Shown here piece after piece: positions 51,001-54,000 of a DNA stretch of 64,000 nt (positions are counted from its first letter, which is position 1; every line of letters starts with the position of its first letter). The stretch lies in assembly GCF_053078305.1 (NCBI RefSeq), contig NZ_CP166879.1, one strand, 5' to 3'. Position numbers: made by a program.

Positions 51001-54000
51001 TCTTTATGGTCGGCGCATATCAGGAGATCCTCGGCAACATGCACAACCTGTTCGGTGATACCGAAGCGGTTGACGTGTTCGTCTTCCCTGACGGTAGTGT
51101 AGAAGTGGAACTGTCTGACGAAGGCGATACCGTGGCGGACATGCTGCAATATGTACAGCTCGATCCGAAAACGCTGCTAACTCAGTTCCGTGATCAAGTG
51201 AAGAAAACCGATCTTGATGCTGAACTGCAACAACAGTTCCTTGAAGAGTTCGAGGCAGGTTTGTACGGTTATACCTATCTTGAAGATGAATAATTAAGAT
51301 TATTCCGCTGGCGGGTCGATTTATTTACGTAAATCGGCCCGCTTTCTTTTTATATATTCTTAAAAATAATTTAGCTGCTTTTCTTATTAAATAATCTCCC
51401 TACAATCGCTGCATTAATTAAATGCAGAGGGAACGGTTATGAAAAAATGGAAAGTACGTAGCGCGTTGATAGCATTAGTCGTGCTGCTGGTCGGTTGTTC
51501 CAGTAATGCGCAGTATAATAGCAGTGCATCGGGCAATGTCGGCACCGCCTGGGGTGGGGATGTGCACTCATCGGTTCAGGGCGTATCTGCTGAACGAGCC
51601 TGGCGCGATCCTGCAGAGATGATCGTTATTAGTTATTCGACTAATGTTCCTTCCGGCTACGACCGCGTTTATAGCATTCGTATTAACGAACTGGAATATG
51701 CTATTCGCGATGGTAATTTTAATTCTCTACCTATTACGCGGGCTTATGATTCATCCAATAATGAACCACGCTATATTGTCCACGCCAGAGTCGGAATGAA
51801 TTATCAATTATATGTTCGTAATTACAGTCGTAACACCAACTACGAGATCGTTGCTACGGTTGATGGCCTGGATGTGCTGAACGGCAAGCAAGGTTCGCTG
51901 AATAACAACGGCTATATTGTGAATGCCGGAGATTCGTTAGCGATTAAAGGATTCCGCAAAGATAAACATACCGAAGCGGCTTTTCAGTTCGCCAACGTTG
52001 TTGATTCCTACGCAGCCAATTCGGCGCAGGGCGATGTGCGTAATACCGGGGTAATCGGCTTTGCCGCCTTTGAATTACAAGGCCCGGCGCAAAACGCGCT
52101 GCCACCGTGCTCTGGACAAGCTTTTCCAGCAGATAACAATGGCTATGCGCCGCCACCGTGTCGGAAATAGCAACCTCGCTTGATGCCTCGCCCATTTAAG
52201 GCGATAATTAGCACAAACTTGTGTTTCGCAAATCCAACCCTTCCTCGTCGGGCCTAACGACGCGGAAGGGTTTTTTTATATCGACTTTGTAATAGGAGTC
52301 CATCCATGAGCACCTTAGGTCATCAATACGATAACTCACTGGTTTCCAATGCCTTTGGTTTTTTACGCCTGCCGATGAACTTCCAGCCGTATGACAGCGA
52401 TGCTGACTGGGTGATTACTGGTGTGCCGTTCGATATGGCCACTTCTGGTCGTGCGGGGGGACGCCACGGCCCGGCAGCTATCCGTCAGGTTTCGACTAAC
52501 CTGGCCTGGGAACACAACCGCTTCCCGTGGAATTTCGACATGCGCGAGCGTCTGAACGTGGTGGACTGCGGCGATCTGGTATATGCCTTCGGCGATGCCC
52601 GTGAGATGAGCGAAAAACTGCAGGCACACGCCGAGAAGCTGCTGGCTGCCGGTAAGCGTATGCTCTCCTTCGGTGGTGACCACTTTGTTACGTTGCCGCT
52701 GCTGCGTGCACATGCGAAGCATTTCGGCAAAATGGCGCTGGTACACTTTGATGCCCACACCGATACCTACGCTAACGGTTGTGAATTTGACCACGGCACC
52801 ATGTTCTATACCGCGCCGAAAGAAGGTCTGATCGACCCGAATCATTCCGTGCAGATTGGTATTCGTACCGAATTTGATAAAGACAACGGCTTTACCGTGC
52901 TGGACGCCTGCCAGGTGAACGATCGCAGCGTGGATGACGTTATCGCCCAGGTGAAACAAATTGTGGGTGATATGCCGGTTTACCTGACCTTTGATATCGA
53001 CTGCCTGGATCCTGCATTTGCGCCGGGAACCGGTACGCCGGTAATTGGCGGTCTGACCTCCGATCGCGCTATTAAACTGGTACGCGGCCTGAAAGATCTC
53101 AACATCGTTGGGATGGACGTAGTGGAAGTGGCTCCGGCATACGATCAGTCGGAAATCACCGCTCTGGCAGCGGCAACGCTGGCGCTGGAAATGCTGTATA
53201 TTCAGGCGGCGAAAAAGGGCGAGTAAGCACCAGATGCGATGCGCACGGGTAAAACGTGCCATTAATGTCGGATGCGGCGTGAACGCCTTATCCGACCTAC
53301 GTTCGGCACCCGTAGGCCGGATAAGATGCGCCAGCATCGCATCCGGCAATGCGCACAAGGTAACAAATGTGCCATTAATGTCGGATGCGGCGTGAACGCC
53401 TTATCCGACCTACGTTCGGCACCCGTAGGCCGGATAAGATGCGCCAGCATCGCATCCGGCAATGCGCACAAGGTAACAAATGTGCCATTCATGTCAGATG
53501 CGAGGTGAACGCCTTATCTGACCTACGTTCGACACCACCAGGCTTTACTTTATCCCATCCGCGCTCATACGATCGCGAATATGCTGGGCGCGTTCGGCGG
53601 ATGCAGGATGGTCGTCAAACATTGAGCTTTGGCGGCCTTCTTCCAGTTTCGCCAGTTTTTCAAAGCTGGTGGCAAGACCTGCCGGGCTGATGCCGCGTTG
53701 GCGCAGAAGATCGTAAGAATAATCATCGGCTTCTGCTTCCTGGCGCTGGGAGAATTGCGAATTAACTAATTTCTCGCCCAGATCACCGAGTTGTGATTGA
53801 GATAAACTGCCGACAATCCCGCCCGCAGAGGCCGCAGCTACTCGCACGGCATTTGTACCAAGTGCCACCTGCATTCCTTTTTTCACATGGCCTAACGCCA
53901 CGTGCCCCATTTCGTGACCGATCACCGCTTCGACTTCGTTATCCGTCATCATATCCATCAGCCCGCTATAGACACGGATACAGCCGTTAGCCATTGCAAA

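Follow-up and report, generated by a model that had tools for sequence, protein, structure and literature searches.

An exactly duplicated 113-bp unit in a probable BIME-2-type REP array between speB and loiP of Escherichia coli

Introduction

What makes a short array of palindromic repeats between two convergent genes longer in one Escherichia coli genome than in another? The question is raised by the interval between speB and loiP in NCBI RefSeq assembly GCF_053078305.1 (contig NZ_CP166879.1), from which we analysed a stretch of 64,000 nt (hereafter the window, whose positions serve as coordinates throughout), and in which repetitive extragenic palindromes (REPs), arranged as a bacterial interspersed mosaic element (BIME), recur with a period of 113 bp. 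Elements of the BIME-2 class are tandem arrays of y and z2 REPs, in which the copies at one locus are well conserved and their number varies among strains (PMC3333891), and length polymorphism of such arrays was described in the 1990s (1997; PMC1187871). Our analysis indicates that the speB-loiP array is very probably a BIME-2-type REP cluster that has gained a single 113-bp unit in register, most likely by homology-guided misalignment. The kind of feature is already known, being an instance of the ordinary strain-to-strain length variation of E. coli REPs and BIMEs.

An exact duplication in the convergent gap

The genes speB (plus strand) and loiP (minus strand) converge on a gap of 318 bp, measured from stop codon to stop codon (53227-53544). 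Tandem Repeats Finder reported a single array in it, at 53252-53536, with a period of 113, 2.5 copies, 95% matches, no indels and a score of 521, and a repeat search paired 53252-53364 with 53365-53477 at 99% identity, followed by a third register (53478-53590) at 61%. Every base from 53256 to 53376 equals the base 113 nt downstream (121 consecutive matches), and the array contains an exact tandem duplication, 53256-53368 being 100% identical to 53369-53481. This duplication is bounded by the octamer GTGCCATT, present at 53256, 53369 and 53482. The lone mismatch between copies 1 and 2 (C at 53255, T at 53368) arises from the phase chosen for the unit and is not a mutation acquired after duplication.

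Each unit is composed of a y REP (GTCGGATGCGGCGTGAACGCCTTATCCGAC followed by CTAC), an 11-nt linker, a z2-like REP (GTAG followed by GCCGGATAAGATGCGCCAGCATCGCATCCGGC) and a 32-nt linker, and the array as a whole reads y-z2-y-z2-y', that is, five REPs in which y-type and z2-like forms alternate. The initial annotation had described a REP-containing unit of roughly 113 bp repeated almost perfectly twice, and the period, the 121-match run and the REP hairpins described below bear this out. It had also described a third, diverged copy, of which only part stands: a third homologous stretch is present, but its homology is limited to the first ~59 nt (53478-53536), a half unit with a single REP (y'), and the remainder of that register is unique flank and the end of loiP.

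REPs and class of the array

Searching the window with the REP pattern GATGCG-N(10-20)-CTTATCNGNCCTAC returned 10 matches (0.00 expected, from 100 shuffles), five of which lie in the speB-loiP array. CTAC (at 53297, 53410 and 53523) or GTAG (at 53312 and 53425) directly abuts each stem, and all five REPs fold as imperfect hairpins with 11-12 predicted pairs (z-scores of -2.5 to -4.5). In every one of them an internal mismatch is predicted between lower and upper stem; such non-complementary bases are needed for binding by RayT, the TnpA-REP tyrosine transposase (PMC3333891). The first y REP is predicted to form a DNA hairpin of -10 kcal/mol (z -3.8) that includes this mismatch, and the first z2-like REP one of -12.9 kcal/mol (z -4.5), in which the upper stem and loop are z2-like and the lower stem is GCCGGAT, as in the y REPs. 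In the terminal y' REP, a GC to AG change at 53503-53504 weakens the upper stem (fold of -7.1 kcal/mol). The y unit agrees with the published consensus GCCGGATGCGGCGTGAACGCCTTATCCGGCCTACGA except for one compensated C:G to T:A pair and the last base, and on either strand the predicted fold of the complete gap is much more stable than those of shuffled sequences (z -7.3 and -7.0). The locus therefore shows what defines a REP, namely an imperfect palindrome of 30-40 nt, GTAG at the foot of the hairpin, stem mismatches, an extragenic position and many copies (with a 701-bp array query, the median was 13 places per genome).

The full Rfam covariance model of naRNA4, a nucleoid-associated RNA (RF02564, positions 1-77; built from REP325, the canonical BIME-2 array), aligned to the minus strand at 53410-53315 with 56.7 bits (E 1e-9), which falls below the gathering threshold of 59.5, and the array does not qualify as a member of that family. 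In this alignment the y REP of the array lies on the Y stem and the z2-like REP on the Z2 stem, with a 19-nt insertion relative to the model's 13-nt linker. Apart from sub-threshold naRNA4 matches and a meaningless plant microRNA match, the Rfam search returned nothing. As expected for BIME-2, the y and z2 REPs alternate in inverted orientation according to the naRNA4 alignment, with the caveat that the z2 lower stem reads GCCGGAT and not GCCTGAT, and the element is tandem, with copies that are 100% identical here and a number that varies among strains (0.5, 1.5, 2.5 or 3.5). The REP/BIME identity proposed at the outset is upheld by the GTAG and CTAC motifs, the imperfect hairpins and the alignment to both naRNA4 stems. 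Two other candidates were rejected. BIME-1, a single-copy element of y and z1 REPs with a long L linker carrying an integration host factor (IHF) site, is contradicted by the lack of the IHF consensus WATCAANNNNTTR in the array, by the 32-nt z2 form of the second REP and by tandem repetition; a REPtron is contradicted by the lack of rayT in the 64-kb window (tblastn with K-12 RayT, best E 0.07). The RefSeq annotation of K-12 at speB-loiP holds coding genes only and no REP feature.

Two observations concern related sequence elsewhere. The octamer TCGGCACC is common to the 11-nt tail-to-tail linker and to AGTCGGCACCGTT, the head-to-head linker of REP325 in K-12, even though the two linkers lie on opposite sides of their REPs; the match could be coincidental or could reflect a motif shared among BIME linkers. 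The window also holds a second tandem BIME array at 36607-36798 (period 87, 2.2 copies, 89% matches), in which z2 REPs are combined with degenerate y REPs and a linker of 14 nt runs from CTAC to GTAG.

Table 1. Parts of the speB-loiP interval and the flanking genes, in window coordinates
Feature	Position	Strand	Basis and remarks
speB (agmatinase)	52306-53226	+	306-residue open reading frame; annotated speB in K-12 and near-identical RefSeq genomes; stop codon ends at 53226
Left flank	53227-53266		Inverted repeats, fold of 53234-53266, allele alignment
Left flank: remnant of one z2 arm	53230-53242		CCAGATGCGATGC
Left flank: small linker-like hairpin			GCAC...GTGC; resembles the long linker inside the array
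Left flank: first GTGCCATT	53256-53263
Exact 2 x 113-bp tandem duplication	53256-53481		Period-113 match run; single 113-bp gap in K-12 alignment
y-type REP 1	53267-53300	-	Stem-loop 53267-53296 and CTAC 53297-53300 (GTAG on minus strand); pattern match 53271-53300
Short 11-nt linker	53301-53311		GTTCGGCACCC; tail-to-tail side, from CTAC of y to GTAG of z2
z2-like REP 1	53312-53347	+	GTAG 53312-53315 and 32-nt stem-loop 53316-53347; minus-strand pattern match 53312-53343
Long 32-nt linker	53348-53379		AATGCGCACAAGGTAACAAATGTGCCATTAAT; head-to-head side; duplication junction GTGCCATT at 53369-53376
y-type REP 2	53380-53413	-	Same sequence as y-type REP 1
Short 11-nt linker, copy 2	53414-53424		Inside the exact duplicate
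z2-like REP 2	53425-53460	+	Same sequence as z2-like REP 1
Long linker, copy 2	53461-53492		Third GTGCCATT at 53482-53489
y' REP 3 (terminal, diverged half unit)	53493-53526	-	Pattern match 53497-53526
loiP (yggG), metalloprotease	53545-54303	-	Open reading frame listing; annotated in D8 and K-12; stop codon 53545-53547, 18 nt from CTAC of REP 3

Copy number across E. coli

We surveyed the interval in 5,426 complete E. coli genomes, 5,425 of which matched a flank query. Full-array BLAST coverage is unreliable for allele counting (pieces that overlap on the subject are joined); alleles were counted instead with flank-only queries (200 + 200 or 300 + 300 nt), the span being read in each genome of two systematic samples of 60 (two genomes common to both), and with a junction-specific query. 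Copy number was expected from the initial annotation to differ between strains, and it does (Table 2). The allele sequences that were read, with 0.5, 1.5, 2.5 and 3.5 copies, are all in register, and the 205-bp gap of K-12 MG1655 is exactly one 113-bp unit shorter than that of the window (a single alignment gap).

Table 2. Alleles of the speB-loiP gap in two systematic samples of 60 complete E. coli genomes
Gap length	Content	Sample 1	Sample 2	Approximate share
203/205 bp	1.5 copies, as in K-12	36	34	58%
90 bp	0.5 copy	4	3	6%
316/318 bp	2.5 copies	1	3	3%
429 bp	3.5 copies	6	5	9%
47 bp	No array	3	6	8%
142 bp	Deletion derivative	1	0
Flanks not joined		9	9	15%

The 142-bp allele (strain XJ5.2) has lost the first y REP together with its left linker (63 bp), with GATGC joined to TACCCGTAGG. 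The speB and loiP flanks were too far apart to join in 798 genomes, about 15% of the 5,425 that matched; in each of the two such genomes inspected, one of them strain M8, the array is replaced by a 7.6-kb D-glucosaminate (dga) operon (dagR, four phosphotransferase system components, dgaE and dagF; L021 9301-16930 in M8). In these dga-type genomes only a short palindrome, CCGACCTAC...GTAGATCGG, is left, adjoining loiP. Within the two samples the copy-number alleles follow flank identity classes, and most of the variation therefore separates old lineages. Alleles of equal copy number can also differ in construction: the 2.5-copy type of UTME-3 and UCPROB-001 reads y-z2-y'-z2-y'' with diverged copies, a different construct from the window allele, and that of AVS0970 (316 bp) stands in a divergent flank background (about 93% flank identity).

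Carriers of the window allele

The duplication junction found in the window is rare. A query of 53300-53460, required to match in one piece at 100% identity, found it in only 8 of the 5,426 genomes (D8, PS10-3, A16, ETEC6335, ES5, 1504D004, 1604D011 and CM196106), and the five carriers inspected came from Panama, China, Mexico, the Netherlands and the UK. Two flank haplotypes account for the eight carriers, and both of them also occur with 1.5 copies. In the first, the flanks of the window and D8 are those of the O157:H7 strain TR01, which has one unit fewer; in the second, represented by PS10-3, ETEC6335, A16 and ES5 (the four inspected of the other six), the flanks match K-12 next to the array. 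All four combinations of y' loop variant (GGCG or GGGG) and copy number exist. Two haplotypes and four combinations imply that the copy number changed at least twice, or that a very short conversion tract moved the array.

The claim of a recent local amplification thus holds, given the exactness of the duplicate, its presence in so few genomes and the example of TR01, whose near flanks match but enclose one unit fewer. It does so in a narrower form: only one unit was gained (1.5 to 2.5 copies), and most differences at this site are old, the locus not being a rapidly changing one.

The y' REP varies as well. Its loop-proximal stem (53503-53504) forms a stepwise series of GGCG (K-12, PS10-3), GGGG (TR01, D8) and GAGG (window only), along which the predicted hairpin loses stability (about -10 to -7.1 kcal/mol). 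The sole difference between D8 and the window in 3.7 kb lies at 53503, and no complete genome among the 5,426 has the A at that position, the best of them being 99.9% and not 100% identical.

Origin of the additional unit

The starting state would be the common E. coli allele y-z2-y' (1.5 units, 205 bp). Its pre-existing direct repeats, 113 bp apart, could misalign by homology, either through replication slippage or in an unequal exchange between sister strands, and one y-z2 unit of exactly 113 bp would in this way have been duplicated in register in the window lineage, yielding y-z2-y-z2-y'. The strand switch appears to have occurred inside the shared octamer: the interval available for it is limited by a C/T difference at unit position 4 and an A/C difference at position 13, which confine it to GTGCCATT. 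The 429-bp allele consists of the 316-bp allele plus a hybrid unit, with a 5' half like that of the last unit and a 3' half like that of the first, which is the product expected of an unequal or misaligned exchange between repeats. Slippage or recombination, the routes suggested by the initial annotation, are supported by this hybrid and by the register kept in all expansions. From these sequences, slippage during replication or an unequal exchange between sister strands is our preferred reading, and RayT is its chief competitor.

RayT would act by cutting a single-stranded BIME at C|T, within inverted REPs and in linkers, and joining the strands, thereby adding a unit. The enzyme cleaves and recombines BIMEs in vitro, makes products with extra REPs and has been proposed as the source of BIME-2 amplification (PMC3333891). 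All five REPs of the array retain the GTAG and stem mismatches needed for its binding, rayT is present in 3,574 of the 5,426 genomes (including the carrier ETEC6335), and the exchange interval of the 3.5-copy allele, CACCCGTAGGC, offers a GCC|TAC site on the minus strand. Yet the junction interval of the window, T-GTGCCATT-A, has no C|T on either strand, and RayT cleavage requires C|T (PMC3333891). The z2-like REP reads TGCCGGAT and lacks the type-I site TGCC|TGAT, the window lacks the gene itself (see above), and homology suffices, with no enzyme needed, to explain a perfect in-register duplicate, whereas an exchange that joined a site in a REP to one in a linker would make new junctions. We know of no demonstration that RayT amplifies such arrays in vivo, and consider its involvement here unlikely. 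Homology-guided misalignment within a BIME-2 array nevertheless has several points to answer. The mechanism is read from its sequence products; the switch took place in only 8 nt of perfect identity despite a 22-nt identical block inside the y REPs, which, being available, means that the site is not the one predicted by simple homology length; and RayT is encoded by about two thirds of complete genomes, one of the carriers among them. The class of the array is also affected: the z2-like REP has a y-like lower stem, and BIME-2 is defined in part by linker motifs (S between the REPs and s, l or r outside them), whereas the linkers here are described by length (11 and 32 nt); the assignment to BIME-2 rather than to an 'atypical BIME' is therefore incomplete. 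The recurrence of the same 113-bp gain at GTGCCATT on two haplotypes could alternatively mark a hotspot, directed by structure or by an enzyme and not a matter of random slippage, for which the linker and REP hairpins, gyrase, or RayT at BIME-2 arrays might be candidates. We think this very improbable; if it were true, BIME-2 arrays would be loci of semi-programmed copy number, adjusting how the 3' ends of the flanking genes are processed or the dosage of naRNA-like RNA.

Two further explanations were weighed. Tandem repeats are a classic source of assembly errors, and a mis-resolved short repeat would be the artefact that the initial annotation named as its own refutation. Against it, eight independent complete genomes have the same 318-bp interval with a 100% identical junction, D8 matches the window in all but the one nucleotide described above, other 2.5- and 3.5-copy alleles occur in hundreds of genomes (796 genomes cover at least 80% of the two-unit query), and the array, 285 bp in all, would fit within a typical sequenced fragment; an artefact has next to no chance of being the explanation. 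The extra unit could also have been selected for a function, as a barrier or attenuator at the 3' ends of speB and loiP, through its gyrase sites, or through the dose of a naRNA4-like RNA that binds HU. The minus-strand y-linker-z2 unit scores just under the naRNA4 threshold, REP325 RNA is reported to condense the nucleoid with HU (PMC4550694), both strands fold far better than shuffled sequence (z about -7), and the same duplication is seen on two haplotypes. However, the naRNA4 match is below threshold and of a kind expected for any y/z2 pair, the window allele is confined to its eight genomes, neither stop codon is moved nearer to or farther from its closest REP by the added unit, and alleles with no array are common (about 8% for the 47-bp form and about 15% for the dga operon), which makes the array dispensable. 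Selection for the extra unit accordingly earns hardly any credence from us.

Expected effects of the array and of the extra unit

REPs and BIMEs have been assigned roles as 3' stem-loops that protect mRNA, in transcription attenuation, in the binding of gyrase and DNA polymerase I, and in recognition by RayT (PMC3333891; PMC12306157). By analogy, the hairpins of this array would be transcribed at the ends of both mRNAs, where they might act as exonuclease barriers and attenuators, and on DNA they might provide sites for gyrase and RayT. DNA gyrase reportedly binds and cleaves at BIME-2, a finding attributed to Espeli and Boccard (1997). The nearest REP stem lies 40 nt from the speB stop codon and 22 nt from that of loiP. 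Since the added unit is internal and leaves both distances unchanged, it is probably near-neutral, and the frequency of alleles without an array makes neutrality the most likely state. Translation-coupled regulation by REPs, which reportedly depends on a REP no more than about 15 nt away from the stop codon, was rejected on the same two distances. Scans of 52900-53900 for sigma-70 promoters and intrinsic terminators found nothing; as weak evidence, this gives no sign of an independent gene in the array or of a canonical speB or loiP terminator.

Annotation, uses and neighbouring features

The duplication does generate misleading open reading frames (ORFs), as had been anticipated. The plus-strand ORFs 53272-53508 and 53385-53690 share their first 35 residues, the minus-strand ORFs 53262-53492 and 53375-53488 end in the same 37-residue sequence, and a Pfam scan of three array ORFs gave no match. 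These ORFs are artefactual, and 'REP/BIME repeat region' is the label that the interval ought to carry. Beyond such annotation hygiene the array is of little importance, except that the locus is a clean natural example of in-register gain of BIME units, whose alleles range from 0.5 to 3.5 copies, include a hybrid unit and point to a gain that has probably recurred. Possible uses are as a simple length marker for the polymerase chain reaction, or as a test locus for RayT against replication slippage in BIME-2 expansion in vivo, a question raised in 2012.

Two other features of the window may be noted. The speA-speB gap contains a 243-residue ORF (51439-52170, plus strand) with a lipoprotein-type signal peptide (MKKWKVRSALIALVVLLVGCSS...) and no Pfam match; K-12 has no gene there (speA-speB gap of 137 bp), and in D8, TR01, UTME-3 and M8 the ORF is annotated as a hypothetical protein or lipoprotein. 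The other is a tandem repeat of 156 bp at 19044-19516 (3.0 copies, 94% matches), contained in a 506-residue minus-strand ORF (18662-20182); because 156 nt equals 52 codons, it is an in-frame protein repeat.

Comparison with known systems

The speB-loiP array shares with bacterial slippage duplications and variable-number tandem repeat (VNTR) loci the gain and loss of whole units in register, a hybrid unit and the same change on two haplotypes. It differs from VNTR loci in its long (113 bp), palindrome-rich unit and in not being hypervariable, and, lying between two 3' ends and not in a promoter or reading frame, it is not a phase-variation switch. With REPtrons it has in common REPs that carry GTAG and stem mismatches, the features recognized by RayT; rayT itself lies about 2.8 Mb from speB-loiP in K-12, and the array is an ordinary dispersed BIME. 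The naRNA4 RNA, which derives from REP325, has the same two-hairpin architecture of y, linker and z2, a likeness seen in the covariance-model alignment. REP325 in K-12 has a period of 100 and 5.8 copies (96% matches), against a period of 113 and only 2.5 copies at speB-loiP; the periods differ because the head-to-head linker is 32 nt here and 13 nt in REP325. The z2 lower stem likewise separates the two, being the y-like GCCGGAT at speB-loiP and GCCTGAT in BIME-2 elements such as REP325. The closest parallel nonetheless remains with the BIME-2 arrays of the Gilson and Bachellier classification (for example REP325, between yjdM and yjdN), in which, as between speB and loiP, inverted y and z2 REPs alternate in tandem, the copies at a locus are near-identical and their number varies from strain to strain (PMC3333891; PMC1187871).

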